Virus record (IMG/VR): IMGVR_UViG_2531839180_000001
DNA from: a virus
Taxonomy: Duplodnaviria; Heunggongvirae; Uroviricota; Caudoviricetes
Direction: 5' to 3' (one strand)
Length of the DNA stretch: 33,339 nucleotides
Below are positions 1 through 27,277 of the stretch, in pieces; position 1 is the stretch's first letter; each line of letters starts with the position of its first letter. The translations under genes were made by a program, and so were the position numbers. The notes beneath the pieces were generated by a model. The model was given only the letters and a program-made list of their open reading frames with translations. It was not told where the DNA came from and searched no databases.

Positions 1-178
1 GTGACATCACCCCCCCCCGGATCATGGACGACTGGGGGCAGTAATCATGCCGGGTCTGGCTGGCTAACACCCCATTATAAGGGGTACGAATAAAGTAACG
101 GGGCCATGCTTACCTTAATAATCGATCTGTTAAACAGATAGATATTGATTTATCTATCGATTAAAACGATCAATACCA

Positions 179-207
179 TTGACAACTGTGTGGGATTTTG
201 TAGGATC
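179..207 (+). promoter_or_regulatory. candidate sigma70 promoter (TTGACA, 16-bp spacer, TAGGAT) with a GATC overlapping the -10
   Basis: TTGACA at 179-184 and TAGGAT at 201-206 read directly; GATC at 204-207; upstream of the 385..663 ORF. Confidence 0.3.
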
Positions 208-384
208 GGTCACGATATGACCACTTTGTTTGTGTGTCATGCATAGGAAAACGCCCCAATAGCGGTAACTATTGGGGCGCCAAAGAAAACGAGGTGTCAT
301 CTACCTCTTGAGCTCGCCAGAATCGTATTTTCTGTGTGTGCCCATGTAAAGATGAACACCTCATTTTATTGAGGTAAATCAAAT

Positions 385-663
385 ATGGGTATAAAGATTT
401 GTAAAAATTCCCACCGATACAACCCCCAATACTCACACCTTCCCGATAACCAGGGGCAAACAGGCCGCCACCGCTGCGCAGCATGCGCATACGAGCTTGG
501 TGTACTTCACGCAATGATCGGTATTCCTAAAGCTAAAGATGATTCCTTCCTGGCAAATATTCCATATAGCCAGGCTGGCACAGTCAGACATAAAGACGCT
601 TTTGAGGCATACATGCTTGGGTACGACTATGCAATGAGCAGTGCTCTGCTCAAAGTTGCGTAA
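385..663 (+). CDS. hypothetical small protein (92 aa), prophage accessory gene at cos-proximal end
   Basis: ORF track 385..663; GAGGT about 9 nt upstream of ATG; Cys/His-containing N-terminal half (CKNSHRY...HRCAACAYELG); no family recognised. Confidence 0.4.
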   Translation: MGIKICKNSHRYNPQYSHLPDNQGQTGRHRCAACAYELGVLHAMIGIPKAKDDSFLANIPYSQAGTVRHKDAFEAYMLGYDYAMSSALLKVA

Positions 664-729
664 CGATTTTTGCTTTTTCACCACCTCAACAATGGTTGGC
701 GAGGTGGTTCTTCTGAAAAGGATAATCAA

Positions 730-1017
730 ATGACTGATATCAAAAGAAGCGACTTATTTTATGACGATTACAGTTGGACTGTTTTGCCAGGAGACGATCC
801 CACGAAAACCGCTACAGACCGCACTCGTTTCAGCCGTAAAGAAGGTTACGAGGTGTTAAGCATGCTTAACTCATTAAAAGAATTATCCCATAGAGAAAAA
901 CTCATTGCGGAGTGGATGATTCACGAGCATTTGCCGTCAAACATCCAAGGAAGGGAACAGGTAAAAAAATGGTTAAAGGATAACTTCTCTGAACTTAAGT
1001 CCCGTTACCCGCGATAA
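730..1017 (+). CDS. hypothetical small protein (95 aa)
   Basis: In frame with track ORF 670..1017; ATG at 730 chosen because AAGGA lies 7 nt upstream; no family recognised. Confidence 0.4.
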   Translation: MTDIKRSDLFYDDYSWTVLPGDDPTKTATDRTRFSRKEGYEVLSMLNSLKELSHREKLIAEWMIHEHLPSNIQGREQVKKWLKDNFSELKSRYPR

Positions 1018-1046
1018 CACAAATCTATAAGGCGCTCAACAACTAA

Positions 1047-1091
1047 AACCCGGAACGGGTGCGCAAATTCTTTGTGCGCCCGTTCCGGGTT
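1047..1091. terminator. long hairpin (21-bp stem, 3-nt loop), probable bidirectional terminator between convergent units
   Basis: AACCCGGAACGGGTGCGCAAA / TTTGTGCGCCCGTTCCGGGTT; the two mismatches are G-U compatible; T-rich run on the minus-strand side. Confidence 0.5.
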
Positions 1092-1329
1092 GGACAAGCG
1101 AAGCGCGTCAGTCGCGCCAGGGTGAGCCCACATCGCAAATACGTTTATCGTTGAATTTAAGTGCATCAAACGTTATTTTTCGCTCGTAGACTGTATTTAA
1201 GATTTTGGGGATTCAGAGGCGGCTTCCCAAAAAAGTTGATACCGCCTAGTTGGTCACTTCGTCGTCAGACTGGGACTCCAACCACGCCAGCTGAGAGGTT
1301 GGCGCTACCTTACCCCCAAAAAAAGTCCA

Positions 1330-1656
1330 CTAACCCGCCTGCAACAACTCCAGCGCCATCTGTTTTTCTTCCGGACGCATTCGTTCAATCAGCAGCTTTA
1401 ACACGCCATTCTCCAGCCCACTGGGCACCAGTGTGTGCGAGTAGGTCAGGTTCATCACCCAGGTGTGCCCGCACTCGAGACGGGTGCAACGGTAATAAAC
1501 ATCAGCAAACTGATCGGTTTTCCAGGCTGTTTTCTCAATGACTGCATGTGCACCACAGCAGTGACACCGCGCTTTCTGTCTGCGCATTTTCCACCTCCCG
1601 GAACAGCGTTTTACTGCTGCTGATTTTACCTGCTCCTTATCCATGTCGCACATCAC
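1330..1656 (-). CDS. Ogr/Delta-family zinc-finger late transcription activator (GTG start)
   Basis: C-x2-C, 22 residues, C-x4-C spacing (CHCC...YYRCTRLEC) matches the P2 Ogr / P4 Delta zinc finger; overlaps the portal gene stop by 4 nt. Confidence 0.55.
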   Translation of the reverse strand: MMCDMDKEQVKSAAVKRCSGRWKMRRQKARCHCCGAHAVIEKTAWKTDQFADVYYRCTRLECGHTWVMNLTYSHTLVPSGLENGVLKLLIERMRPEEKQMALELLQAG

Positions 1657-2687
1657 TCCGTGGATTCGTTAAATTCAAGAACAAATTCCACCTCCCCCAG
1701 TCGCCGGATATCCGGGTCGCTGTTGATCCCCTCCATAATCAGGCGGCGCATCGGGATAACCTCATCGCGGTAATAGGCCTCACGGGATTTCAGCGGATCA
1801 CCAAGACCAGCAGTGTTAGCAGGAATGATGCCGGCAAGCCCGGGTGGAAAACGGTGTGCCACGAGCTGATCCTGGGCACTGATGGTTTTTATATTCAGGA
1901 ACTCATCTTTTGTACCTGAATCCCCGATAGGGATCACCTTAACGCCTTCTTTGTCTCCGCCCGGTATATTGATAAACATGGATTTAAAATTGCCCGCCCC
2001 TTTTGACGCCTCTATCTTTTTACGGAATTCCGCCTCGAGCTCGGGATCCATGTCCGGGTCAGTGGAATACAGGATATAACCAAGATGTGCGCCGTTCTTG
2101 TAATACTTGCGGCGAAAGCGGGTGGCATCCACATTCAGCATGGCGGATTCCATCCCGTGAATATAATCCGGGACACCGTAAACCTGCTGTTGCGGGTCAT
2201 AAATGGCCACGAACACCGCTTCGCCTGGCGGGTAAACGAGATCTTCCAGTGCCGCCTGCACAATCACCGTGCCACCCTCGTTGTTACGCCGCAGGTACAG
2301 AGAAGGTAACGTATGCAGGCGCACCACCCGACCGAAGCCATTGCGCACTTTAAGCAACCCCATATCCCCGAATATCAGCAGATTGGTTACTGCTGCCGCC
2401 ATGGCGGCGTGTGTCATACCACCACCACCCCGAAAACCCTGCATGATCATATTGACGCGCGCACGCAATACCGCGCCGTGATACGGTGCGATATTGGCCA
2501 ACATGGCGAGATCCATGCGCTCAATGGGCGGCGTGTACCAGCCGTTATAGCCATCCCAGAGCGAGCCGTAATAACAGCCCCATGCAGCGACCGGTTCCGG
2601 GTCACCAAATTCAATAAACGTCATTTTGCTGGCTGTTTTTTTTGCCACGCCATCGTGTAGCACGGGGGATTTTTTCTTTTTACTCAT
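1653..2687 (-). CDS. portal protein (P2 gpQ-like, 344 aa)
   Basis: Length and position immediately downstream of the terminase ATPase gene, as in P2 Q-P; overlapping coupled genes. Confidence 0.85.
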   Translation of the reverse strand: MSKKKKSPVLHDGVAKKTASKMTFIEFGDPEPVAAWGCYYGSLWDGYNGWYTPPIERMDLAMLANIAPYHGAVLRARVNMIMQGFRGGGGMTHAAMAAAVTNLLIFGDMGLLKVRNGFGRVVRLHTLPSLYLRRNNEGGTVIVQAALEDLVYPPGEAVFVAIYDPQQQVYGVPDYIHGMESAMLNVDATRFRRKYYKNGAHLGYILYSTDPDMDPELEAEFRKKIEASKGAGNFKSMFINIPGGDKEGVKVIPIGDSGTKDEFLNIKTISAQDQLVAHRFPPGLAGIIPANTAGLGDPLKSREAYYRDEVIPMRRLIMEGINSDPDIRRLGEVEFVLEFNESTE

Positions 2688-4467
2688 CTGACAGGATCCA
2701 TGTTGATTTGCGCTTGTGCTTATAGTTCAGGGGTTCATTACTTGCGGCATGAGCTATGGCAAAGAAGATGTCAGCGTGCCCGGTTTCTTCGCTACGTTCA
2801 GCGGTAAAAGTAACTTTATTGCCACTGTTGGTGGATTCCTGACGAATGGCCAGAAATGATGCCGGAATATCCGTGGCTTCCTCATCCCACTCAATACGGT
2901 TGGCGTAAATCAGATCCAGCATCTTCATCACCAGACGGTTTTTGGATTCAACGCTGTAATGAATGGCCACTGTTTCACGGCGGGCAAATCCCTGAACCAG
3001 CTCAAAGACACCATAGCCAAGCCCGGTGACGTCAATGCCGATAAACGTCATGTTATAGCGCGCCTTAATGCTGCGGATACGCTCTGCCATAAACTGGAAT
3101 GACATGCTGCGCCAGTGGTGTTTTTCCAGCACGCGGAATCGTTCTGCCGCAACCAGCGGCGGTGACAGCACCACAAACGTGGCGTTATCGCCGGAGCGTG
3201 CAGGGTCAAAGCCCCCCCACACTTCACGGTTTCCAAATGGCATGGCATCTTCCGGGTGAAAATCCTCCCACGTACTGACATCAACGCCACAGCGCACGAG
3301 GTCATCGAATTTAAAGACGCTCTCTTTGTCATCCACAAACACGCACATGAACAGCATATTGAACGCTGTTTCGTTGTACCGCTCGCGCAGCTCGTTGATG
3401 TCAGCAAGGTTAAAGCCGCCGGCAATGGCATCTTCCAGCGTAACCACATAGCGCCACTGACCATCAGGGCATTCGCGCCCGCCATCGCGCAGTTCATCAA
3501 AGGACGGGAACTCAACCCCTTTTCGTTTCGGGTCACCTTTGCGCCATTCATCGCCAGACCAGAACGGGTAACCCTGGTGTGTTTTGGATGACGGCGTGGA
3601 GAAATAGGTAATGCGCCAGTGCGAGTGGGTAGCCATACCGGATGCCACTTCATTGAGACGACGAAAACCGGGGATCCACAGATATTCGTCAATATACAGG
3701 TGGCCGCTGTTTGACTGTGCCGTATTGCTGTTGGTCGCCAGAAAATACAGTTCAGCCAGATTGCTTAACTTAACCGGATTGCCTTTAATGGGGATGCCAA
3801 ATTCCGTTTGTGCAATTTTTACAATATAAGTACGGAACACTTCGGCCTGACGTTTTGATGCCGATAAAAATATCTGTGTGTCGCCGGTTAATACCGCATC
3901 TTCAAACGCCTCAAACGCGAAGTAATACGTCGCCCCAATCTGGCGGGATTTAAGCAGGTTCCGTACACGGCGGAATTTGTTTTCACGCAGGCGCAACTGA
4001 TAAGCAAACAGTTTCTTCGTAAACGGCTCAAAACTTTCAGCAGTCAGTCCGGAAACGTCATTAGTTTTGCGGGGACGCTCTTTCTTACCTGCACCTTTTT
4101 CTCCGCGTTCTTCTTTTCCATAACGGCCAGGCTGGGGGATGTCCACTCCCATTCGCGCAATCTCAGCCATTCGTTCCGTGTGCTTGTTTCTGACCGACAT
4201 TAGTTTGACGTGATGACCAATCAGGCGGTCGAGTTCATCGTGTTCTTCCGGCGTTTTATGGTCACGCTCCGCCAGTACAGCGAGACGCCGGGCGATAACA
4301 TCCTCCACACCTTCCGTATTGAGCTGCGTGTACCACTCAAACTTTGTCGCCCAGTAATAAACAATTCGCGGGCTGTTCAGTCCGAGTTTCTTTTGTATTT
4401 CTTTTGGTGTGTGCCTTTTCAGATAGAGCGATTTTGCAGCAGCAATCACCTCATCAGAATACGCCAT
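2680..4467 (-). CDS. terminase ATPase / large subunit (P2 gpP-like, 595 aa)
   Basis: 595 aa; Walker-A-like segment; divergent from the scaffold-capsid operon exactly as P2 P versus O-N-M-L. Confidence 0.9.
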   Translation of the reverse strand: MAYSDEVIAAAKSLYLKRHTPKEIQKKLGLNSPRIVYYWATKFEWYTQLNTEGVEDVIARRLAVLAERDHKTPEEHDELDRLIGHHVKLMSVRNKHTERMAEIARMGVDIPQPGRYGKEERGEKGAGKKERPRKTNDVSGLTAESFEPFTKKLFAYQLRLRENKFRRVRNLLKSRQIGATYYFAFEAFEDAVLTGDTQIFLSASKRQAEVFRTYIVKIAQTEFGIPIKGNPVKLSNLAELYFLATNSNTAQSNSGHLYIDEYLWIPGFRRLNEVASGMATHSHWRITYFSTPSSKTHQGYPFWSGDEWRKGDPKRKGVEFPSFDELRDGGRECPDGQWRYVVTLEDAIAGGFNLADINELRERYNETAFNMLFMCVFVDDKESVFKFDDLVRCGVDVSTWEDFHPEDAMPFGNREVWGGFDPARSGDNATFVVLSPPLVAAERFRVLEKHHWRSMSFQFMAERIRSIKARYNMTFIGIDVTGLGYGVFELVQGFARRETVAIHYSVESKNRLVMKMLDLIYANRIEWDEEATDIPASFLAIRQESTNSGNKVTFTAERSEETGHADIFFAIAHAASNEPLNYKHKRKSTWILSDE

Positions 4468-4661
4468 AAATAAACCTCACCTGCTGATGCAATTTTAATT
4501 TGTGCATTTTCAGCAAAGGCTTTTTTAAAAACGAATATCGCTTTTCGGTATTTTTCGGATATATGCGCATATCCGAAAGTACCGGAAATTAATCAGATGA
4601 CGACGTTTTCATTTCTCCGTTAAATAACGCCAGTTTAATTTTTATCAGCGGATTAATTCAG
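4468..4661. promoter_or_regulatory. divergent late promoter region between terminase and scaffold operons; 10-bp inverted repeat with 6-bp spacer at 4553-4578
   Basis: AT-rich 194-bp intergenic region; TTTCGGATAT-ATGCGC-ATATCCGAAA dyad; duplicated TTAATNCAGATGACGA motif at about 4589 and 4653. Confidence 0.5.
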
Positions 4662-5558
4662 ATGACGAAGCAGAAAACAGACTGGGTTGTGGTTGCCACA
4701 TCAGGCCCCACCATCGACGGTCGGGAAATTGATCCGAAGTGGCTGACGGATGCCGCCGAGGTTTACAACCCGGACGAGCGAGCCGCCATGCTCTGGCCAT
4801 ATCACGCCGATTCCGGATGGCGTGCCTTCACCAATAACTACGGCATTGTTGATGCCCTGAAAGTCGAAAAATTTGGTGAAAAGGTGCAGCTTAAAGCACG
4901 CCTGATCCCAAATCGCTTCCTGATTGAAGCCAATAAGGCCGGGCAGAAACTTTTTACCTCCATTGAAGTGCGGGAAAACTATCTGGGCACAGGCAAATTC
5001 TTTGTGTCCGGTATCGCCGTGACGGATACCCCAGCCAGCATTAACACTACACGCCTGCAGTTTTCCATGGGGGAAGCCATCCATATGGGCAACGCAGAGG
5101 CGCTGAATTTTACGCTGCAGCCTGATGATGAGCAGGCCAAGCGCAACTTCTTCTCCCGCTTCTTCTCATCTGACAATCACCAACAGGGAATTTACCAAGC
5201 CATGAACGAAGAACAGTTCAGCCAGTTAATGGGTGCCATTAATAAAACCAGTGAACGCCTGGACGAGCTGGAAAAAAACGTCGCGCAGTTCAGCGCGAAG
5301 GATGCCCCGAAAGATACCGGTGATAACAAGCCGGAAGGCAGCACCGGCGATCAGGGGCAGGACAACGCAGAACAGAACAACAAGGACGACAAAACCTTCA
5401 CGCTGACCACCGAGCAGGGCGAAAAGCTGTTCTCCACAGTGAACGCCATCGCGGAGAAGGTTACCAGTATGGAAACCGCATTTGCTGAACTCAGCAAGGA
5501 CGCCACGAAGCTGCCGGGCAACAATCCGGCCGGTGGCGAAACTTTTAACCTGGTGTAA
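4662..5558 (+). CDS. capsid scaffolding protein (P2 gpO-like)
   Basis: 298 aa; first gene of the head operon upstream of the major capsid gene; acidic low-complexity C-terminal half. Confidence 0.8.
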   Translation: MTKQKTDWVVVATSGPTIDGREIDPKWLTDAAEVYNPDERAAMLWPYHADSGWRAFTNNYGIVDALKVEKFGEKVQLKARLIPNRFLIEANKAGQKLFTSIEVRENYLGTGKFFVSGIAVTDTPASINTTRLQFSMGEAIHMGNAEALNFTLQPDDEQAKRNFFSRFFSSDNHQQGIYQAMNEEQFSQLMGAINKTSERLDELEKNVAQFSAKDAPKDTGDNKPEGSTGDQGQDNAEQNNKDDKTFTLTTEQGEKLFSTVNAIAEKVTSMETAFAELSKDATKLPGNNPAGGETFNLV

Positions 5559-5572
5559 CCGGAGAGAATGCA

Positions 5573-6586
5573 ATGAACATGACACCAGAAGCACAAAAGC
5601 TGGTTAATCAGTACATCAGCGAACTGCAAAAAACATTCAGTGACTGCGGAAAATCAAGCGATCGTTTCTTTTCGCTGACCGAGCCACGCAGTATTGCTCT
5701 GCGTAAAGCCCTGCTGGAAAGCACGGAGTTTCTGAGTTTCATCACCTGCATGGACGTTCCGCACCCGCAGGGGCAGGTCGTCACCGTGGGAGAATCCACG
5801 CTGCGCACCGGTCGCGTGAAAAGCGGTCGTTTTGCTAAAGGTTCGGGCATCAAAGGCAACGAATTTAAACTCGTTGAAACTGATTCCTGCTGCGTGATCA
5901 CCTGGGAACAACTCGCCATCTGGGCGAATGCCGGCAGCCCGCAGGAATTTTTCAACCTGATGAACTCCGCCGCCGTCACCAACTTTGCGCTGGATATGCT
6001 GCGCATTGGCTTTAACGGTAAAACAGCAGCGGAAAACTCTGACCCGGAAAGTCACCCGAACGGCGAAGACGTCAACATCGGCTGGCATGAAATCGCCAAA
6101 AAATGGGGAGAACAGCCCGGCAACACCTCCCGTATTCTGACAGACGCCGTTACCCTGGGCGAAGGCGGCGATTATGTCGGTCTTGATGCCATGGCCTCAG
6201 ATCTGATCCGCACTTATATCCCGGCGCAATATCACAACGATCCTCGCCTTACTGTGCTGGTTGGCGCAGACCTTGTGGCTGCTGAAGAACTACGCCTCTA
6301 CAACAAAGAGGACAAGCCCACCGAAAAAGTGGCCGCACAGTTGCTGACGAAGAACATTGCGGGCCGCAAGGCCATCATTCCGCCGTTTATGCCGGGCAAA
6401 CGTATGGTGGTGACCATGCTGCCAAACCTGCAGATCCTGACGCTGAAAGGCTCCCGCCGCCGCAAGGCAGAAGATGTGGGCGATCGCAAACAGTTCGAAA
6501 ACTCATACTGGCGTTATGAGGGGTACGCCCTGGGCGATCCGGATTTATATGCTGCCGTGGATGAGTCTGCGGTCACCATCGCCTGA
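5573..6586 (+). CDS. major capsid protein (P2 gpN-like)
   Basis: 337 aa; shares motif blocks with P2 gpN as I recall it (AGFNGK, GGDYVGLDA, DPRLTVLVG). Confidence 0.85.
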   Translation: MNMTPEAQKLVNQYISELQKTFSDCGKSSDRFFSLTEPRSIALRKALLESTEFLSFITCMDVPHPQGQVVTVGESTLRTGRVKSGRFAKGSGIKGNEFKLVETDSCCVITWEQLAIWANAGSPQEFFNLMNSAAVTNFALDMLRIGFNGKTAAENSDPESHPNGEDVNIGWHEIAKKWGEQPGNTSRILTDAVTLGEGGDYVGLDAMASDLIRTYIPAQYHNDPRLTVLVGADLVAAEELRLYNKEDKPTEKVAAQLLTKNIAGRKAIIPPFMPGKRMVVTMLPNLQILTLKGSRRRKAEDVGDRKQFENSYWRYEGYALGDPDLYAAVDESAVTIA

Positions 6587-6603
6587 TAAACGGAGCGCAC
6601 GGT

Positions 6604-7314
6604 ATGCCAACGCCAATGCAGCGACAACGTGCCCGACAGATGGATGAGCGCCGTGCGGCGCTCATGACCAGAACGGACGGGCGCGCCGTCAGCACAGAGA
6701 GTCAGCACATTAAGCTGCTGGCACTGGATAACGATGTCAGACAACTGCACAACATGGAGCTGCTGTCTGACAAGCTGGAATTCAAGCGGAACACGCTGCT
6801 GCCCCGCTGGCTGCCACACGCACAGGCTTATCTGGAGGGGGAACGCGTCTATCAGAATCCCATTCTGGTGTACTGCATCATCTGGCTGTTCGATACCGGG
6901 CAGTTTGAGATGGCGCTGCGGTGGGCTGACATTGCCATTGAGCAGGGACAAAAGACGCCGGAGAACTTCAAAAGCGAGCTGCCAACGTTTGTGGCCCATT
7001 TCATTCTTGAATGGGCAGAAACCGAAGCTGAACGCGGGAGCAGTATCGCGCCATATTTTCAGCAGGTGTTTGAAAAAATCCGCGACAAATGGCGCGTGAA
7101 TGAACGCCTTGCTGCCCGCTACTGGCGCTTTGCAGGCATCCTGCTGCTGCGCGGCGATGACGGCAAGCCACAGGCCAGCGCAATTAACGATCCGGAGAGA
7201 CTGCAACAGGCCGACCAGTGTCTGGAACGGGCTGCCTGGCTGCATCCAAAAATTCAGGTGAAAACCCTGCGCCAGCGCATTGCCGCAAGACTGCGCGCGT
7301 TGCAGGGCACGTAA
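6604..7314 (+). CDS. terminase endonuclease / small subunit (P2 gpM-like)
   Basis: 236 aa; position after the capsid gene as in P2 O-N-M-L. Confidence 0.75.
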   Translation: MPTPMQRQRARQMDERRAALMTRTDGRAVSTESQHIKLLALDNDVRQLHNMELLSDKLEFKRNTLLPRWLPHAQAYLEGERVYQNPILVYCIIWLFDTGQFEMALRWADIAIEQGQKTPENFKSELPTFVAHFILEWAETEAERGSSIAPYFQQVFEKIRDKWRVNERLAARYWRFAGILLLRGDDGKPQASAINDPERLQQADQCLERAAWLHPKIQVKTLRQRIAARLRALQGT

Positions 7315-7412
7315 ACGACTCCCAACAACCGGGCGGGCGCGGTGGAGGTGTGCCGGCAAAAGCCATCAGCACACTGCGGAAACCGGTCAGCCCGCCTTTC
7401 CCCGGAGTGAGC

Positions 7413-7907
7413 ATGTTTGACGGGAAAAGCATTCACTATCAGCAGGCCATTATTCAGAACGATGGATTCTGGCCGGATATTGATGCCGGCGATTTTGAAA
7501 AGAGCCGCAGCATCCCCGCCGTCACGTCACACGAAACGGTGCTGACGGCGCTGCTTTGCGCGGTAACAGAGATTAACACTGAACTGGCTGCACGCCGTGA
7601 ATACTGGCAGGAACAGGGCCACATCCGGGCCGCTGATATTCCGGGGTACACCGTGTTGCAACCAGAGCCGCGCAATACGGATGCACAACCTGAACGGATG
7701 CAGAACCACATTACAGCACTGTACACCAAGGCTGTGTATGCCCGCGCAAAGGCCGATCTTTTGCCGGAATCTGCCAGCGTGGGGCGGCGCGAGGCGCAGC
7801 CATCATCAGAGGCCAGCGAAAGCCGCCGGACGTTGCTGGCTGAAGCGGCCATGGCGGTGCGGGCGCTGCTGGGCCGACCGCGTGCATCCATCGCGCTGAT
7901 TGATTAA
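7413..7907 (+). CDS. head completion / stabilisation protein (P2 gpL-like)
   Basis: In frame with track ORF 7218..7907; ATG at 7413 preceded by GGAG; about 164 aa, close to P2 gpL size and position. Confidence 0.65.
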   Translation: MFDGKSIHYQQAIIQNDGFWPDIDAGDFEKSRSIPAVTSHETVLTALLCAVTEINTELAARREYWQEQGHIRAADIPGYTVLQPEPRNTDAQPERMQNHITALYTKAVYARAKADLLPESASVGRREAQPSSEASESRRTLLAEAAMAVRALLGRPRASIALID

Positions 7908-7916
7908 GGAAATGGT

Positions 7917-8390
7917 ATGACGCAACTCGCCAGCCTGACGGCATTCATTGAAAACAATCTGCCGGCACGCGCACGCATTCCGTTCACCAGTGACATGGAT
8001 GACATCACGCTCGTTCCGTTTACGAAGTCGCTGGGGCACGGGCAGTTATGTACGCAGGTCCGAAAATATACGGCTTTTCTGCGATGGGACGCATGGCCCT
8101 ATCGTCAGCTCAATCCGGATTTGGTGTTTTCTCTGGTTGAAGCCTGGCTGGCAGACAACGGCGGCGACCTGCGCCAGCGCCTGGCACCGGATGCACCAGC
8201 CGTTGACGTCGAAGTGGATGATGAAAATGAAGTGGCATGGCTGGAAATCAGTCTGCCGCTGGTTGATCCCATCACCCTGGTTGAGGACGAAAACGGCCCC
8301 ATCCCCAGAGGCGGGAAACGTTACCAGCTGGAAAAGCCTGAAATCTGGGTGGCTCAGGCGCATCAGCTTCACTGCCAGGTGATGCCATGA
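7917..8390 (+). CDS. tail completion protein (gpR-like by size and position)
   Basis: 157 aa; follows the head completion gene and overlaps the next gene; assignment positional. Confidence 0.4.
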   Translation: MTQLASLTAFIENNLPARARIPFTSDMDDITLVPFTKSLGHGQLCTQVRKYTAFLRWDAWPYRQLNPDLVFSLVEAWLADNGGDLRQRLAPDAPAVDVEVDDENEVAWLEISLPLVDPITLVEDENGPIPRGGKRYQLEKPEIWVAQAHQLHCQVMP

Positions 8391-18117: not shown

Positions 18118-18672
18118 ATGATGCATTTAAAAAATATTACCGTTCAGAATCCTAAAACGATTGAGCAATACCAGCTGGCGCGACAGCATAAATTTTTATT
18201 GTGGCTGTTCTCAGATGATGGTCAGGAATGGCACGAAGCCCAGGAAAAATTTCAGCCAGATACTCTGAAAGTTATTTATACCGAAACTGGCGAGGTTGTC
18301 TGGGTCGGAAAAGATATCACCTCAATCTGTCCGGAAAATAAAAGTGTAATTGAGCTGCCGGATATTACTGCTAATCGCCGTATTACCGTGTCCGGTTACT
18401 GGTTTTACCGCAATGATGAATTTGTTTTCGACTACAAACTTAAGGCGGAAGATGAACGCGACGCCCTGTTAAAACAGGTCAGTATCATGACCAGCGAATG
18501 GGAAAAAGACCTGCTACTGGGGCTAATCAGCGACGAAGACAAGGAAAAACTGAAAGCATGCCGTATTTATGCGAAAGCACTACAGCAGATGACATTCTGC
18601 CAGGTTACAGATAAAGCATCGTATGCCGCAATTGCGTGGCCAGAATTACCGCAGAACATTGACGAGAATTAA
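18118..18672 (+). CDS. tail fibre assembly chaperone (gpG/Tfa-like)
   Basis: 184 aa directly downstream of the fibre gene; C-terminal AAIAWPELP-type motif; AT-rich. Confidence 0.7.
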   Translation: MMHLKNITVQNPKTIEQYQLARQHKFLLWLFSDDGQEWHEAQEKFQPDTLKVIYTETGEVVWVGKDITSICPENKSVIELPDITANRRITVSGYWFYRNDEFVFDYKLKAEDERDALLKQVSIMTSEWEKDLLLGLISDEDKEKLKACRIYAKALQQMTFCQVTDKASYAAIAWPELPQNIDEN

Positions 18673-18678
18673 GAAGTT

Positions 18679-20538
18679 ATGAGCGCACTGTTAACAAAAG
18701 CATTTGAAAAGTGGGTTACTGGGTGTACAGCAAGTAATTTACCTGCACGCCCCGACGCCATTATATTCGCCCTGATGGAGCGGGAACCGACGCGCGATGA
18801 CTACACTATCCCGCCAGAAAAAATTGTGCACACAGAAAGCAATCTGACGTATGGTCAACTCAACCAGAACACTATCGTGTGCAGTGCTACAGTTGCGGAA
18901 GAAACTGAGTTCAGTTATGACTGGATTTGCCTGGTACATCAGGATAGCGGCACGCTATGCGGCGTGATAAAAACCCCGATCCGCCACAAGCAACCAGGAG
19001 AAACTCTCCTGCGAAACTTTGTTATTATCCACAGCGGACTTGCACAGGCTGCGCAAATCATCACTCCACCACAGAGCTGGCAGGTGGATATCAACCCATG
19101 GATTAATGAAATAAAAAATAAAATTGAAACGATACCATCAGACAGAATAGAAGATTTTAATTCACTACAAACAACCTGTACCAATGCAATGCTTCAACTT
19201 GAGCAACCAGAGGTTATTGATAAAACAATAACCATTAGCATCAAACAAAACATTAACTTCGATTATACTGGAGAAATTAAAGGTCACTGCAATATTCCAG
19301 ACCCCGAAAAATATGCAGTATCAATGTATACTCATACAACCGGTGAATACTTTAACGGCAACAGTCCTTTAAATGCGGATGGCTCTTTTTATTTCAAGCG
19401 AAGTTGGACTGGAGCAAAGCAGTTTCGACTTATTCGTCTTGAAGACAATAAGTGGATCACAACACTGGAATATCCCCTGTGCATCCGCAGCTACTGGATG
19501 CCAGAAAACGCAGATCCAGAAGTTGCCGGAGTTATGAAAGACCGGTGTTACACCTATGATCAAGCACTGGCAACGCTGGCATTAATAGTACAGCGTCACG
19601 AGGCTGTAGAAAGATACGTTATCGGCTTGTGTGCGCTTGTAGGTGAAAACGGCGGGGTAAAATTTTTCGTTAACAGACTGTCAGCTATGTCTCCACGTGC
19701 CTATTACCGCCTTGGGAGCGCGGCGTGGGTATACTATGCCCTGGCATTTTATCTTGAGAAATACCCGGACAGCCCACTGGCAGAGCAGGTCAGAGAAAAG
19801 CTATTGGCAGGCATTGCATGGCTTGATACTTTCCTGGTGACTACACCAGATGACCTGCGCGAAGGTCTGTATAAAGGCGGCCTGGGACGTTATGTGAACG
19901 GTAATTTTGATGCTGACTTTGTTGTTGAGTGGTGTGCGCTTGAGCACAATGTCGATATCTGGTTCCTGTTTGAGTTGATGGGACGACTGGGATTCAGTGG
20001 GTTTAGCGAGCGCGCAAAAAAACTGGCAGAAAGCATTATCAGGGGGATGTGGGTAGATGAGGAAGGGAGATTTCGCCAGGGCGTTCACCCAAACCACTAC
20101 GACAATGCTGCAGCACTGGACCAGTCATCCTGGGGAGGTCTGTTTGTCGCTAATATTGATGCAGAGAAAGCCACCAAATGCCATCGCTATATGGGGCGGT
20201 TTCTCTTTGGTACAAGGGAAAGTACAGGGTACACCCCTTATCACCCTGATTACGGTTACAGCGGGCATAGTCGCGGTGTGTGGGTGGAGGGGACTGCAGG
20301 CGTGGCGTTGTTTGAGCGCAAGCTGGGCAATGAACTAAGCGCGGCTAATCTCATCGCCGCTATGGCACCTCTTCGCGATAAATATGGATATCGTGATTCG
20401 TGTGATGACCCTACATACGATGTACTCCCCCCGTGGCCATCCACAGCTAATACAGCCTGGATTATTCTGGCATGCAATCCAGATGGATTCTGGCTGGTAA
20501 ACACACCAGCGATGGAAATAGGATTTGTCAGATACTGA
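18679..20538 (+). CDS. second tail fibre / tailspike-like protein with enzyme-like C-terminal domain
   Basis: N-terminal ~150 aa align with the main fibre N-terminus (PARPD, F-Y-WI-L...SG-LC...TP, WQ-D blocks); AT-rich linker; helical C-terminal ~330 aa. Confidence 0.55.
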   Translation: MSALLTKAFEKWVTGCTASNLPARPDAIIFALMEREPTRDDYTIPPEKIVHTESNLTYGQLNQNTIVCSATVAEETEFSYDWICLVHQDSGTLCGVIKTPIRHKQPGETLLRNFVIIHSGLAQAAQIITPPQSWQVDINPWINEIKNKIETIPSDRIEDFNSLQTTCTNAMLQLEQPEVIDKTITISIKQNINFDYTGEIKGHCNIPDPEKYAVSMYTHTTGEYFNGNSPLNADGSFYFKRSWTGAKQFRLIRLEDNKWITTLEYPLCIRSYWMPENADPEVAGVMKDRCYTYDQALATLALIVQRHEAVERYVIGLCALVGENGGVKFFVNRLSAMSPRAYYRLGSAAWVYYALAFYLEKYPDSPLAEQVREKLLAGIAWLDTFLVTTPDDLREGLYKGGLGRYVNGNFDADFVVEWCALEHNVDIWFLFELMGRLGFSGFSERAKKLAESIIRGMWVDEEGRFRQGVHPNHYDNAAALDQSSWGGLFVANIDAEKATKCHRYMGRFLFGTRESTGYTPYHPDYGYSGHSRGVWVEGTAGVALFERKLGNELSAANLIAAMAPLRDKYGYRDSCDDPTYDVLPPWPSTANTAWIILACNPDGFWLVNTPAMEIGFVRY

Positions 20539-20565
20539 AACTATAAATAATAAGTCAGCGAACTA

Positions 20566-21315
20566 ATGAACAATTTCCCATCCATATTACAATCAACCAC
20601 CTCCCAATGGAGAGAGGTAATCCTGCGCCCAGCAGCTATAAATACATCCTGCTCTCAACTCTGCTTTCATCCATGGTCAGGCAATACAGGAAATGCCACA
20701 CCATCAGGCCGTTACCTTAGCCCAATCAATGCCGTTGCAGCTCTTTTACCATATCTTTCTGAAAACACAGAAAAAGATATCGTAGCGCTGTTATTTTGCG
20801 CCCCTTCTGCTGGCGAGTTTTTATCACTCGCCGGGCAATTTTCAGGCGCATTTCCGTTGCCAGAGGTGGGACGAATGTCCCGCATGATCTCCAGCCAGCT
20901 TTCACTGGGCATCAGCAGAATGCAAATCCCCGCCAGACCGGTAACATCACTTCCGGAACCGATAATGCTGTCGACACAGACCACTCGCAGCATGTCGCTG
21001 GCGGAAACCATTGCACAGGCAGCCACTCCTGCCGCCACATCACCGGATACATTGTCATCATCACTGCATCAGTTCATGAATGCGAGAGATAAAGCCTTAC
21101 AGGAAATCGCTGATCAGCAGGCCGCACTCCGGCAAAAATTTTGCCCGGTGTGGCGCTTTTGCTACAAGGGAGCCCTTAGCCAGGCTGCAGTGCTGATACA
21201 AAAAAACATCCCACACCCCGAGTGGGTTTTTACAGCTGTGATGCTGTTCGTCGGCGATAATCTCTCATCACTAAGGGAAGCACTACATGACCCAGATGAT
21301 TGTCCTTGCGCTTGA
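20566..21315 (+). CDS. hypothetical protein (249-aa frame; alternative start at 20875 with GAGGTGG RBS gives about 146 aa)
   Basis: Long open frame without SD at 20566; Ser/Thr/Ala/Pro-rich; no family recognised. Confidence 0.3.
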   Translation: MNNFPSILQSTTSQWREVILRPAAINTSCSQLCFHPWSGNTGNATPSGRYLSPINAVAALLPYLSENTEKDIVALLFCAPSAGEFLSLAGQFSGAFPLPEVGRMSRMISSQLSLGISRMQIPARPVTSLPEPIMLSTQTTRSMSLAETIAQAATPAATSPDTLSSSLHQFMNARDKALQEIADQQAALRQKFCPVWRFCYKGALSQAAVLIQKNIPHPEWVFTAVMLFVGDNLSSLREALHDPDDCPCA

Positions 21316-21862
21316 CGGGGAAGCCATTCTGCTGCGCAACATCACCGTCAGCGCCACCATGCAACTACCGGACAAAGATATGTCCGGACAGTCAACCAGC
21401 ACCACGAGCGCCCAGCAGGGAAACAAGGCTAAAGAGCTGCGCGTGTCGGGGGTTATTGATTTTAACGATGAAGCTATTCTGACCCGTATTTTTCAGCTTG
21501 CGGAGGCAACAGAAAGCAACGGTGCTAAAAAAACATATCGCATTGCTAACGCTACCGCGAAGGCAATCAATATGCGACAGGGGGTATTTTCTGGTGGCAT
21601 TGATGCCACGGAACAACAGGGAAAAATGCACTGGCAGGTCACCTTTACTCTCAGGGAAAAATTAAGCGTGCCAGAGAAAGCATCCGCACGCAGCGGTTCG
21701 CAGAAAACCATCGCCAGACAGCAGACTCAGAACGGTAGCGAACAGGCACCAGACAAAGGCATGAATACGCAAAGTTCGTTCTGGAAAAAAATCAATGATG
21801 CCGTTGGCTCTGGTCTGGATGCTGTTGGCATCGGGAGCGTGAAAGAGGAAGGGAAAACATGA
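21287..21862 (+). CDS. hypothetical tail-associated protein (occupies the P2 gpU position ahead of the hub gene)
   Basis: 191 aa; overlaps both neighbours; positional inference only. Confidence 0.3.
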   Translation: MTQMIVLALDGEAILLRNITVSATMQLPDKDMSGQSTSTTSAQQGNKAKELRVSGVIDFNDEAILTRIFQLAEATESNGAKKTYRIANATAKAINMRQGVFSGGIDATEQQGKMHWQVTFTLREKLSVPEKASARSGSQKTIARQQTQNGSEQAPDKGMNTQSSFWKKINDAVGSGLDAVGIGSVKEEGKT

Positions 21863-23556
21863 AATTGATACAACGCTGTATGATTAATGGCGAACGGGTG
21901 GAAATTGCCGATATAAACCTTGTTCTTACCCTGAATGCTGCCGGTCGTGGCTTCATTTCTGTTAACAATCTGTCACCCGAACACACACTTGCCGGCGCAA
22001 TGGTACAAATTGATCTCGGCCGTGACGGTGAAGCATGGCGCTATTTCTCCGGCTACATTGAGCGCGATCAACCTGCTGAAAATGGCTCACGTCGCCTTTT
22101 TATCCGTGAAGCAGCTGCTGTGCTGGATTTTGATTTCCCTTGCTCCATGCAACACCCGACGCTGCGGGGGGTACTCGATAATCTGGGGCGACAAAGCGGT
22201 ATCGTTTTTATCACTCCGGATGCGGATTATGCCAGTATACCAACTCCCTACATCACCCACAGCGGCAGCGGAGCACAACTGCTCAGCCAACTGGGGCGAG
22301 CATTCAGTATCAGCGATTACGTCTGGCACCCTATGCCGGACGGTTCTGTATTTGTGGGGAGCGCAGCTGATTCACGGTTTGCCAGTATTACTATGCCGGA
22401 TATTCCGCAACAGTACACACTCGGGCAAAGCGGCGGAAACAGCATCGACATCATGTTTATGGAAACTGTGCGACCGGGCGTGAATCTTCCCGCCGGGCGC
22501 ATTACCCGTGTAGCCCTCAACAACGAGAAAATGACCCTGACATGGGAGCGCCTTACCGCCACGGGTAGCCCTGTTTCCAAATCACCATTACGCAGACAAA
22601 TGGAAACACAGTTCCCGGAACTGGCCAGCGGTATTCTTCATACCCGGCTGGCGCGCGTCATTGCCCCAACGGAATCCGTCACCCTGGGCGATGTAGCCGA
22701 CAGCTTCCGCCCACGCTACGCCGTCGATGTGCAGTTGCTTGATGAGAACGGCAACGATAAAAACGATACACCTGTTTACCCGGCAGTACCCCTCCCCGTC
22801 CCCATGGCTGGCAGTGAGGCGGGATGTTTTGCCTACCCGCCAGCAGGCACCATCGTGGAAATATCCAACATTGAAGGACGACCGGATAAACCTGTCATCA
22901 GGCAAATCTTACCCGCGGGCCATAACCTGCCTGATGTAAAGCCCGGCGAACAGCTGCAGCAACAGCGCGCAGAAGTGTTTCAGCGTGTCACGACTGATGG
23001 AAGCTGGCACAGAGAAACCGATCAGCAAATCAGGGAGCATTCAGCCAGGCGAACCATTAACAGCGATCAGGAAGAACGCACAACAACAACCAGAACAACA
23101 ACAGTACAGGCAAACGACATAACCAGCGTTCTGGGAACCAGCAAGCTGATGACAGGTCAGACAGAACACATTACTACTGGCCATTATGCGATCGCAGCCG
23201 GTGAGCATATCCAGATGGTAGCGCAGGATTTGCTGACTAAACTCAAAGGGGCGACATCCACCATCGAGCATAACCTCACCGAAAACGTGGGAGGCCGCAG
23301 AACATGCCGGGCGGACGGTGGCCTGGAATTTACCGCCCCGACTGTATTTATTGGGCGCGGTGGCTCACGGGAAAAATCCGGACTTAATCTGCTGACGTTG
23401 TTGATTGATATTCTGGATCTGGTTCAGTTGCTGGCCACACACACTGCAAACCACACCCACAGCAACACTGGCACACCAACAAACAGCAGCGAACTTGCCG
23501 CAGACGCCCAACAGGCTACGAGCCTGCGCGAAAAATACGGCGACCTTATCGCCTAA
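21859..23556 (+). CDS. baseplate hub / central spike protein (gpD-like, possibly fused to a gpV-like spike tip)
   Basis: 565 aa, last gene of the late operon; C-terminus carries HTANHTHS (HxH), reminiscent of iron-binding spike apex motifs. Confidence 0.5.
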   Translation: MKLIQRCMINGERVEIADINLVLTLNAAGRGFISVNNLSPEHTLAGAMVQIDLGRDGEAWRYFSGYIERDQPAENGSRRLFIREAAAVLDFDFPCSMQHPTLRGVLDNLGRQSGIVFITPDADYASIPTPYITHSGSGAQLLSQLGRAFSISDYVWHPMPDGSVFVGSAADSRFASITMPDIPQQYTLGQSGGNSIDIMFMETVRPGVNLPAGRITRVALNNEKMTLTWERLTATGSPVSKSPLRRQMETQFPELASGILHTRLARVIAPTESVTLGDVADSFRPRYAVDVQLLDENGNDKNDTPVYPAVPLPVPMAGSEAGCFAYPPAGTIVEISNIEGRPDKPVIRQILPAGHNLPDVKPGEQLQQQRAEVFQRVTTDGSWHRETDQQIREHSARRTINSDQEERTTTTRTTTVQANDITSVLGTSKLMTGQTEHITTGHYAIAAGEHIQMVAQDLLTKLKGATSTIEHNLTENVGGRRTCRADGGLEFTAPTVFIGRGGSREKSGLNLLTLLIDILDLVQLLATHTANHTHSNTGTPTNSSELAADAQQATSLREKYGDLIA

Positions 23557-24387: not shown

Positions 24388-24528
24388 ATGTCGCAAAAAT
24401 CGCTTATAGCCATCACGTTCTGCGTGACGGCAATCCTCATCATCTGGATGCTGCACGGTTCGCTGTGCGAGATACGGATGAGATTCTGGGGAGCGGAGTT
24501 TGCGGCGTTCTTACAGTGTAAGCAGTAA
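24388..24528 (+). CDS. Hok/Gef-family type I toxin (46 aa)
   Basis: AAGGAG 9 nt upstream of ATG; MSQKSLIAITFCVTAILIIWMLHGSLCEIRMRFWGAEFAAFLQCKQ has an N-terminal TM helix and the SLCE(I/L) core of Hok proteins; below the ORF-track size cutoff. Confidence 0.7.
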   Translation: MSQKSLIAITFCVTAILIIWMLHGSLCEIRMRFWGAEFAAFLQCKQ

Positions 24529-24780: not shown

Positions 24781-24978
24781 ATGACGCAAAATGTACGATG
24801 CAAAAATTGCAACAAACTACTTGCCCGCGCCTCATTTCACTACATTGAAATAAAATGTCCGCGCTGCAAAACACTTAACCAGATAACGAGAGCCATTGAG
24901 CACCCCACACACATGAGGAGTTATGACCGTGGGGATCGCAATCCAGCACCAACCAGCACATACACCGGAACACACTAA
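24781..24978 (+). CDS. com: Com-like zinc-finger translational activator
   Basis: VRCKNCNKLL...HYIEIKCPRCK closely matches phage Mu Com as I recall it; AAGAGG SD; ORF overlaps the methyltransferase start by 56 nt. Confidence 0.75.
   Translation: MTQNVRCKNCNKLLARASFHYIEIKCPRCKTLNQITRAIEHPTHMRSYDRGDRNPAPTSTYTGTH
24903..24934 (+). promoter_or_regulatory. hairpin sequestering the methyltransferase SD and start codon
   Basis: CCCCAC (24903-24908) pairs with GTGGGG (24929-24934); the loop holds GAGGAG and ATG 24923. Confidence 0.5.
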
Positions 24979-25729
24979 GGTTTATCAGACTGACAATGCC
25001 ACGCTCTGTCGTGGGAATGCGCTGGAAATATTGCCGCTGATTGAGCCAGAAAGCATTGATGCCTTAATCACTGACCCACCTTACAGTTCGGGTGCGACAC
25101 ACAAGGCCGGACGCACCAACCAGGGCAGCCATGCAAAATATCTGAACGGCGAGAACCTTCACCGCTTTGATGGGTTCGCGGGTGAAAACATGGACGCCCG
25201 TTCGTGGGCTTACTGGACACAATTATGGATGGCACAGGCACACCGCGCAGTCAGGCCGGGCGGTTATGCCCTGGTATTTACTGACTGGCGACAACTACCA
25301 GCTTTAACCGATGCGTTTCAGGCCAGTGGCTTTACATGGCGCGGCATCATTGCGTGGAACAAGGGGAGGGGGTCACGAACACCCCATACCGGGTATTTCC
25401 GGCATCAGTGCGAATACATTGTCTGGGGCAGCAAAGGCCATTTAGATAAATCGCCTTCGGGGCCGTTCGACGGCTGCATGACGTTCCCGGTTATCCCGTC
25501 AAAGAAAATGCACCCGACCGGAAAACCAGAAGAACTAATGGCAGAGCTGGTCAGAACTGCGAATAGTGGCGGAACAGTCCTTGATCCCTTTATGGGGTCA
25601 GGAACAACGGGTGTGGCTGCACTGAAAGCAGGGCGAAAATTTATTGGTATAGAAACCAGTGATCATTATTTTGAGGTAGCAGCGCAGCGGCTTCGGGGGA
25701 CTATTACCACAACCATTTCGGCTACATAA
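24923..25729 (+). CDS. DNA N6-adenine methyltransferase, beta-class (DPPY before FxGxG), orphan
   Basis: DPPY motif IV near the N-terminus and DPFMGSGTTG motif I near the C-terminus; no adjacent restriction endonuclease gene. Confidence 0.85.
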   Translation: MTVGIAIQHQPAHTPEHTKVYQTDNATLCRGNALEILPLIEPESIDALITDPPYSSGATHKAGRTNQGSHAKYLNGENLHRFDGFAGENMDARSWAYWTQLWMAQAHRAVRPGGYALVFTDWRQLPALTDAFQASGFTWRGIIAWNKGRGSRTPHTGYFRHQCEYIVWGSKGHLDKSPSGPFDGCMTFPVIPSKKMHPTGKPEELMAELVRTANSGGTVLDPFMGSGTTGVAALKAGRKFIGIETSDHYFEVAAQRLRGTITTTISAT

Positions 25730-26276: not shown

Positions 26277-26455
26277 TCAAAATGTGTGATGGAAATCTCA
26301 TAATTTTGTCACTTTTTGTCAACGAATCTTTTTTGTGAGAAATCGCAGGAAGAGGTGTTTTTTTACTTGAGGAATATCTCAAAGCGAGCCATATTTGATG
26401 AGATCGATAGTGACTAAATCGCTTCAGTTTCACAACTAACAGAATAAAAAAACGG

Positions 26456-26468
26456 CAGCTCAAGGCTG
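26456..26468. repeat. 13-bp target-site duplication, left copy (CAGCTCAAGGCTG)
   Basis: Identical 13-mer flanks both ends of the IS4-derived element. Confidence 0.8.
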
Positions 26469-27277
26469 TAATGCCAGTCAGTTAAGCAACTGACTGGCTC
26501 TTTTTCGGGGCTGTGGGGTATTTCCAGGGCCTCTCCTTTACCACTCTCGGGAAGGCCCTTTCCCTTCTTGTCGGTAATTTCACTGGTTGTCCCATACTTG
26601 CAAGATCGCGCATCAGCTCCGGTATACGTCCCGGTGAAGCGCATGGCGTCCGTCATCGACGTCAGCAGATGGCTGGTCAGTTCCATCTGGCAGACCATTT
26701 TGACCTGCGGGTAGAGCGCCGGGTTCTCGGCATGTGTCTGGCGGGGGAAGGCTGCATCGTTCTCTGGTGTATCCGGTGTGCGCCAGAACACACCATCGAT
26801 GGCCAGCAGGGTCAGGCCGCACCAGTGCGGATGCAGCGTGGCGTTATGCCAGAGCTGCGCTGTTTTCGTGAACACGCGTCGGACAGCCTCACTTCCCAGG
26901 CGCTGGCGGGCCTGAATAACGGCACTGGGGGCAACGAAGGGGCGATTGCCCGGCAGCATGATGTCCAGGCGATTCACAATCTGGTGAAGAGGTTCTTTAC
27001 GCTCAAGCGCCATGCCAACAATACACCAGACCATCATTTCGAGGGGAAGACGGCGCTTGCGTAGCGTTACAGTACCTGATTCGGCAAGGCAACGAGAGAT
27101 GAGTTCGGGGTCGAGGTAATCCCCCAGAGAAGTCAGTGGGTTACGCAGAGAATCGTAACGGGATACCAAATCAAGGGCCTGTCCAATGAGCATAAAAAAA
27201 TCCGGAAACGAGTGAGCGTTTCCGGATTCTTACACAGGCACTGGATCGGTCAACTGATCCTTAACTGATCGGCATTA
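26469..27277 (-). mobile_element. IS4 derivative with internal deletions (about 0.8 kb, non-autonomous)
   Basis: Imperfect terminal inverted repeats beginning TAATGCC at both ends; transposase N-terminal ~180 aa and last ~45 aa colinear with IS4 transposase as I recall it; middle missing. Confidence 0.8.
26482..27193 (-). pseudogene. IS4 transposase remnant (internally deleted, frame disrupted)
   Basis: Track ORF 26414..27193 is IS4-like to about residue 180 then out of frame; authentic C-terminus ...RVVKERPWKYPTAPKKSQSVA readable in another frame, ending at 26482. Confidence 0.75.

Follow-up and report, generated by a model that had tools for sequence, protein, structure and literature searches.

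A portal-adjacent Ogr/Delta-type gene in a P2-like Escherichia coli prophage, with a predicted promoter of its own and a candidate late operator

Background

The Ogr family of late activators includes Ogr of coliphage P2, B of phage 186 and Delta of satellite P4. In the stretch of viral DNA analyzed here (IMG/VR record IMGVR_UViG_2531839180_000001, 33,339 nucleotides, indicated throughout as "the window"), a small gene of this type lies just behind the genes for portal and large terminase, on the same strand. The position raises the question of how such an activator is expressed, whether as the last product of a late operon which it presumably activates or from a promoter of its own, and of which DNA site it may recognize.

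Prophage context

Positions 1000-3000 of the window are 100% identical to the chromosome of E. coli strain ECL27977, and 81 of the 5426 complete genomes of E. coli contain related copies. The prophage is integrated between pheA/pheL and raiA. Its first part features, in this order, integrase, a short HTH repressor, Cox, early genes, a replication endonuclease, ParM with a partner, and cargo genes; activator, portal and terminase, all read leftward, and the rightward genes from scaffold to baseplate follow, with Hok, Com and a DNA methyltransferase at the end. The core of this order (integrase, repressor, Cox, early and replication genes, leftward activator, portal and terminase, rightward scaffold to baseplate) is common to K139 and ESSI-2, while cargo genes differ among the three. 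Prophages of E. coli in which a P2-type switch, here C/Cox, is combined with structural genes of HP1/K139 type are already known from the literature (PMC3448106).

The leftward late operon begins with the large terminase gene (2680..4467, minus strand; the equivalent of P2 P), matched by Pfam Terminase_6N, Terminase_6C and Terminase_5, and continues with the portal gene (1653..2687, minus strand; the equivalent of P2 Q), matched by Pfam Phage_portal with E = 5e-13 and reported in RefSeq as "phage portal protein". The gene coordinates and the Pfam matches bear out a first-pass annotation, which had placed the activator gene directly 3' of a portal-terminase operon, on the same strand. The rightward late array (4662..23556, plus strand) is composed, according to PHROG, of genes for scaffold, capsid, small terminase, head completion, tail, lysis and baseplate; the scaffold is GPO-type and the capsid protein belongs to the P2 family.

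From 23557 onward, after the last baseplate gene, about 0.8 kb are devoid of annotated genes; this non-coding stretch may contain the cos site. At the right end of the prophage, a gene for a Hok/Gef toxin (24388-24528) is followed by one for a Mu-like Com zinc-ribbon protein (24781-24978); the latter gene overlaps that of the DNA methyltransferase (24923-25729). A truncated gene for an IS4-family transposase (26414-27193, minus strand), located between raiA and bamD of the host, encodes the N-terminal domain only: it is absent from the otherwise identical ECL27977, accounting for an 821-bp difference, and is present in other E. coli genomes.

Gene product

The longest open reading frame at the locus, 1330..1656 on the minus strand, is composed of 108 codons, with a GTG start at 1656-1654; the coding sequence is most likely the shorter 1330..1587 (minus strand), encoding 85 amino acids, and is assigned to an Ogr/Delta-type late activator by Pfam and PHROG. 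The first-pass annotation had recognized a C-x2-C...C-x4-C finger in the longest frame and indicated a profile search as the way to check it. Frame and finger are both present, and the search found the Ogr_Delta domain (PF04606; curated cut-off 26.3 bits) in either form: the 108-codon product scores 47.8 bits (E = 1.4e-12, residues 30-76), the 85-aa form 48.3 bits (E = 9.4e-13), the latter over the full-length domain at residues 7-53. The 85-aa protein also matches phrog_603 (E = 3e-29); P2 Ogr and K139 orf13 match the same two profiles. Its zinc-finger cysteines, as read from the translation, are C8-x2-C11-x22-C34-x4-C39, a spacing equal to the family motif quoted as CX2CX22CX4C (PMC3931495).

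Pairwise similarity is confined to closer relatives: identity is 52% to SI7/SW3, 48% to ESSI-2 and 46% to K139, the nearest phages. No BLASTP alignment with P2 Ogr is obtained at E <= 100, so that kinship to it is visible through profiles only, and a sequence search of the PDB returned no related solved structure (best matches with E > 0.2). The gene adjoins P2-type head genes, namely portal, terminase, GPO scaffold, P2-family capsid and small terminase. Judged from profiles and neighbourhood, the protein is a distant but secure member of the Ogr/Delta family, within a portal-adjacent branch. The gene is in itself ordinary, real and already annotated, and its layout was already known.

Late promoter region

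The two late operons diverge from the terminase/scaffold intergenic region (4468-4661). The first-pass annotation had found no P2-type activator site, TGT-N12-ACA, in the divergent head promoter region, and had suggested a binding specificity unlike that of Ogr. The absence holds for 4468-4661, even when one mismatch is allowed; as a test, the strict pattern is weak, given how the three annotated sites of P2 itself behave: two (pP/pO and pF) fit it with one mismatch, and the third (pV) does not.

A different candidate activator-binding array is found at 4542..4588, midway between the ATG of terminase (4467) and that of scaffold (4662): its centre, at 4565/4566, is 98 nt from the former and 96.5 nt from the latter. 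The array is built on the half-site CGGATAT. An inner dyad, TTCGGATAT-N6-ATATCCGAA (4554-4577, with N6 = ATGCGC), contains a TTCGG-N14-CCGAA core, and two outer half-sites, TTTTCGGTA (4542-4550) and TACCGGAAA (4580-4588), are located about 10 bp beyond it. The core occurs once each in the window, K139 and ESSI-2, always between the terminase and scaffold genes; the K139 dyad (TTCGGATATAACCCCATATCCGAA) is nearly identical, while in ESSI-2 the right half differs in the bases adjoining CCGAA. All 23 IMG/VR relatives covering the site, fetched by their scaffold protein, feature the dyad in the same place. A pattern scan of IMG/VR with TTCGGAT-N10-ATCCGAA returned many chance matches; in 30 of the 80 loci, diverged genes for terminase (46-68% identity) and scaffold (30-45%) directly flank the dyad. 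As these 30 were retrieved by the pattern itself, their inner dyad is conserved partly by construction. In these loci an ogr-like gene follows the portal gene wherever the DNA extends far enough. Unbiased cases are fewer, and include K139, ESSI-2 and SMHB1 (the last with an N13 spacer); HP1 and F108 feature only degenerate GGATAT repeats in place of the dyad, and in Pseudomonas phage phi3 no such dyad is found. In the searchable literature, which leaves some key older papers outside, nothing relevant to a TTCGG dyad was found.

When the dyad serves as anchor for aligning the sequences, recurrent half-sites are seen on its flanks, and every lineage compared has a TAnnnT-type hexamer at +55..+60 from the centre. 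This fixed offset marks, in the window, TTAAAT (4620..4625, plus strand) as the predicted -10 of the rightward late promoter, with a start at about 4632; the mirror offset points to GAAAAT (4506..4511, minus strand) as the putative -10 of the leftward one, with a start at about 4499. The array centre would thus be located at about -66 from both predicted divergent starts, compared to -55 for the shared pP/pO site of P2, that is, about one helical turn further upstream. At the corresponding position the P2 record reports an "activator binding site; pO, pP promoters". Neither a sizeable intergenic gap nor a second copy of the dyad is found in 4662-23556: the rightward late region, about 19 kb, may be transcribed from a single promoter, compared to three rightward late promoters in P2.

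From its position, and from its co-occurrence with the gene, the array is most likely the binding site of the window protein. The binding specificity of the activator probably differs from that of P2 Ogr, as indicated by the lack of a P2-type site together with the conservation of another dyad at the equivalent position; the suggestion of the first-pass annotation gains support in this respect.

Alternatively, the array might be bound by some other factor, either a phage regulator or a host protein, the Ogr-like protein acting at a different, unrecognised site. Binding of the dyad by an Ogr-like protein is deduced from sequence, phi3 has a portal-adjacent gene and no dyad, the sites in HP1 and F108 are degenerate, and a satellite encoding an 89% identical activator (see below) lacks a dyad copy: all these observations would fit such an arrangement. 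It is nevertheless unlikely, since the array occupies the exact place of the annotated P2 activator site and stands at a fixed distance from -10-like hexamers devoid of a -35; moreover, its persistence from Vibrio to E. coli, and in some high-GC hosts, argues for a phage-encoded partner, and Ogr-like proteins are the sole known type of late activator in this phage family (P2, 186, P4).

Predicted promoter of the activator gene and possible read-through

An alignment of the 75 nt ahead of the start codon covered 11 lineages, among which E. coli, E. albertii, Edwardsiella, two from IMG/VR, two satellites, ESSI-2 and SI7. Invariant columns are confined to the motif G-N-TAAAAT, located in the window at 1623..1630 on the minus strand (hexamer 1628-1623, G at 1630, corresponding to -14) and predicted to act as a -10 element, with transcription starting at about 1616. 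In the satellite copies the motif stands in a different frame and is read as a stop codon, which indicates conservation as DNA and not as protein; DNA homology between window and satellites stops about 6 nt upstream of it. More distant relatives feature a TAnnnT hexamer at the equivalent place. The P2 record annotates TAAAAT(G) as the -10 of ogr, 34 nt from the ATG; in the window the distance is 35 nt. Since the -35 region, GTGCGA (1651-1646), is poor, with 3 matches out of 6, and a consensus promoter scan left the activator promoter below threshold, promoter activity is to be regarded as inferred; the gene appears to have a weak promoter of its own.

Other control elements were looked for around this promoter. 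No CTGT...ACAG LexA box is present within 1588-1760, no 8-mer is common to the C/Cox operator region (locus L042, 6541-6720) and the region upstream of the activator gene, and an Rfam scan of positions 1-5000 gave nothing above threshold and nothing near the gene. A perfect palindrome with the same half-site as the array, CCGGATATCCGG, is found within the portal gene (1704-1715) and was considered as an autoregulatory site; it was treated as a chance occurrence, because it is placed about 93 bp upstream of the predicted start, out of helical phase, and is broken in relatives (two close ones have CCGGATATCAGA/G).

Between the portal stop codon and the ATG at 1587, neither a terminator scan nor folding revealed a terminator or a significant structure (z = -1.3). 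The first strong intrinsic terminator is located after the activator gene, at 1037..1091 on the minus strand, where a hairpin (1091-1047) is followed by UUUUAGUUGUU: its fold energy is -32.2 kcal/mol (z = -4.8), and it is also called by the terminator scan. In relatives a terminator is found within about 25 nt of the activator stop codon; in the window, a cargo remnant of about 215 nt (1115-1330) is inserted between the two.

The slot behind the activator gene holds variable cargo: here, two open reading frames without Pfam match (385-663 and 730-1017), in relatives an Rrf2-family regulator. Within the inserted stretch, 1195-1307 match a segment of DUF3800 genes, as well as phage Chuche, with 93% identity. 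The interval 1090-1330 was also considered as a cos site, and rejected, since relatives have only about 25 nt there and the extra 215 nt are an insertion with a DUF3800 fragment.

As no terminator separates the portal and activator genes, transcripts of the terminase-portal operon may plausibly extend into the activator gene, which would give positive feedback. This leaves standing one part of the first-pass proposal, which had seen the gene as a member of the late operon in a positive feedback layout; the other part is qualified by the apparent presence of the gene's own promoter. That the gene might be an independent unit, transcribed from that promoter only, with negligible read-through and no meaningful positive feedback, would agree with the conservation of the -10-like element and with satellite copies that function without a portal gene upstream; the lack of a terminator or stable hairpin after the portal stop, together with the P2 record, where one terminator is annotated as common to the F operon and ogr, makes this distinctly unlikely.

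Start codon

In the longest frame, the GTG at 1656-1654 overlaps the portal stop codon TGA (1655-1653), so that the two frames overlap by 4 nt, as the first-pass annotation had reported. Inside this frame, 65 nt past the portal stop, there is an ATG at 1587, and the PF04606 domain begins 6 residues after it. Read from the sequence, this ATG is preceded, 3 nt (AAA) away, by the Shine-Dalgarno sequence GGGAGGTGG (1591..1599, minus strand), while no usable Shine-Dalgarno is found ahead of the GTG. RefSeq, accordingly, reports the coding sequence as 1330..1587, with the 85-aa product WP_001254198.1.

Comparative data point in the same direction. The 85-aa protein is 100% identical in E. albertii and in other E. 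coli copies, despite differences in their DNA; between these sequences, the 23-codon extension (1588..1656, minus strand) undergoes the changes D to G, twice, Q to R and A to V. Variable sites are distributed among the three codon positions as 8:8:44 in the 85-aa coding sequence, versus 3:7:9 in the extension. In Edwardsiella relatives (82% protein identity) an in-frame stop codon is found 7-8 codons upstream of the ATG, and in one E. coli copy (locus L007) a 1-nt insertion breaks the frame of the extension, although, falling in a G-run, it could be a sequencing error. Satellite copies have a GTG start at the equivalent position, preceded by AGGAGG, with no portal gene upstream. Translation most likely starts at ATG 1587 and not at GTG 1656, the extension being most likely non-coding and corresponding to promoter and 5' untranslated region. 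The GTG start and the 4-nt overlap of the first-pass annotation are thus correct for the longest frame, but not for the likely gene, and translational coupling through a GTG at the portal stop is unlikely, with the likely start 65 nt further down.

The upstream frame is nonetheless open, up to a start codon overlapping the portal stop, in the lineages of E. coli, ESSI-2, SI7, L032 and L035, the overlap taking the form TGATG in ESSI-2, ATGA in SI7 and TAATG in L032 and L035; because of this, a minor longer isoform may be translated from read-through mRNA. The frame conservation, along with the long form given by RefSeq for the ESSI-2 gene, could even suggest a 108-aa protein initiated at GTG 1656, coupled to portal by the overlap and made only as the last product of the late operon. 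Such a model is very unlikely: besides the Shine-Dalgarno sequences, the Edwardsiella stop, the frameshift and the non-synonymous changes reported above, the sole conserved stretch of the extension is the DNA motif which reads as a stop codon in the satellite frame, and an activator depending on a promoter that needs that same activator could not start the circuit.

Satellite copies

A copy of the gene without its usual neighbours is found in E. coli 52F4 (NZ_CM147848.1, 2538700-2556000; locus L192), in an island of about 12.5 kb between hpt and gcd. The island carries two integrases, a toprim primase, an Icd-like gene, Hok and a P2-family major capsid gene, whose product is 44% identical to the capsid protein of the window, and is devoid of portal and terminase genes. 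Its ogr-like product is 89% identical to that of the window, and the gene is preceded by the same G-N-TAAAAT. Five related loci were found, and the same ogr-like gene is present on IMG/VR contigs of about 12 kb. From its gene content, the island appears to be a P4-like satellite to helpers of this class, equipped with its own capsid protein. A scan for the dyad, allowing N12-N16 spacers and at most one mismatch, revealed no convincing copy in the island; a one-mismatch N14 match at 8278 is located inside the capsid gene and was treated as chance.

Proposed role of the gene

A reading that accommodates these data, and is held to be fairly probable, is that of an 85-aa Ogr-type late activator, translated from ATG 1587, expressed from its own promoter and, through read-through, under positive feedback, and binding a single array. 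The protein would activate the late genes of a P2-like prophage whose structural genes are of HP1/K139 type, and its own gene would be a small promoter-gene-terminator cassette, placed directly behind the portal gene. Transcription would initially start from the weak promoter with the -10 at 1628-1623; later, once late transcription has begun, read-through from the terminase-portal operon would be added, generating positive feedback in the manner of P2, whose ogr is the last gene of the F operon. The protein would bind the palindromic array about 66 bp upstream of both predicted divergent starts, and both late operons could thereby be switched on from one site. A different role for this zinc-ribbon protein, as a repressor or a DNA-packaging accessory for example, might be suggested by the failure of BLASTP to align it with P2 Ogr and by the lack of a solved family structure (best PDB matches with E > 0.2), but is most improbable for a protein that shares Pfam and PHROG profiles with P2 Ogr, well above threshold, and the exact cysteine spacing, and whose gene parallels ogr in promoter hexamer, spacing and gene-terminator cassette.

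A broader reading is offered more tentatively, as a possibility that may well prove wrong: the portal-adjacent branch of Ogr proteins would have switched its specificity to the four-half-site CGGATAT array, about one turn further upstream, where a single site would fire both promoters, and with them the whole late set of about 22 kb; satellites would have captured the cassette of promoter and gene, presumably to activate the late genes of the helper in trans. For a widespread and unstudied branch of the Ogr family, a start codon, an own promoter and a single bidirectional operator are now predicted. If true, this would define a second specificity class for a minimal zinc-finger activator; it could aid in learning how so small a protein reads DNA, and in predicting which satellites exploit which helper prophages.

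Comparison with known systems

The first-pass annotation had contrasted this layout with P2, where ogr was said to be a separate unit at the far right end. The contrast is overstated: on the P2 map ogr occupies a central place adjacent to attP, 81 nt downstream of the late gene D, and according to the P2 record its own -35 and -10 are contained in this 81-nt gap, with a terminator annotated "for ogr transcript and F operon". In P2 too, then, ogr is found at the 3' end of a late operon, with its own promoter in a short gap and a terminator common to both. The likeness extends to the protein, small and single-domain, with the same PF04606 and PHROG 603 matches and the same CX2CX22CX4C finger, and to the control region, where in P2 one activator site serves the divergent terminase and scaffold promoters. 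Differences concern size (72 aa for Ogr, 85 aa for the window protein, with different C-terminal tails), location (ogr follows the tail gene D in the F operon, the window gene follows portal in the P operon), and target sites: TGT-N12-ACA near -55, annotated at three sites per genome, compared to candidate CGGATAT half-sites (TTCGG-N14-CCGAA) near -66, at one candidate site in the window. Judged by sequence and annotation, the principle of the cassette is the same as in P2, placed behind another late operon.

The position directly downstream of portal, on the same strand, is found in K139, HP1, F108, SMHB1, phi3, ESSI-2 and SI7; in the first six of these, and in the window, the cassette faces the early/replication region. 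It is the standard position for HP1/K139-type P2-like phages, and has already been remarked for K139 and Smhb1 (PMC8537503). In phiCTX and in Burkholderia phi52237, instead, an ogr-type gene is found among the early genes. In HP1 (NC_001697.1; locus L194, 5501-5704) and phi3 (NC_030940.1; locus L195, 5501-5719), the ogr-like frame downstream of portal was revealed by tblastn, at a place where no gene is annotated. These two frames, K139 orf13, F108 Orf17 and SMHB1 gp25 share 34-46% identity with the window protein. K139 differs in having an extra gene, orf14, and a gap of about 260 nt.

A further difference concerns the upstream region. K139, F108 and, with one mismatch, SMHB1 carry a LexA-box-like CTGT-N8-ACAG upstream of the -10, which the window and its E. 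coli relatives, equipped with a P2-type repressor, do not. The motif, located 8-11 nt upstream of the -10, is found in many relatives from Vibrio, Pasteurella and uncultivated phages: upstream of K139 orf13 (locus L069), at about 5400-5470 in F108 (locus L198), at about 5260-5310 in SMHB1 (locus L199), and at nine further loci. This suggests that in such phages the late activator may be wired directly to the SOS response; a search of the literature accessible to it gave nothing relevant on LexA control of ogr homologs.

The nearest sequenced phages are ESSI-2 from Cronobacter and SI7 from Salmonella, whose products gp32 and gp38 are 48-52% identical to the window protein over the full length. 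Both genes are annotated as longer, with 106 and 91 aa respectively. Both phages share with the window the terminase-portal-activator order and the upstream G-N-TAAAAT, and ESSI-2 also features the dyad in its terminase/scaffold intergenic region.
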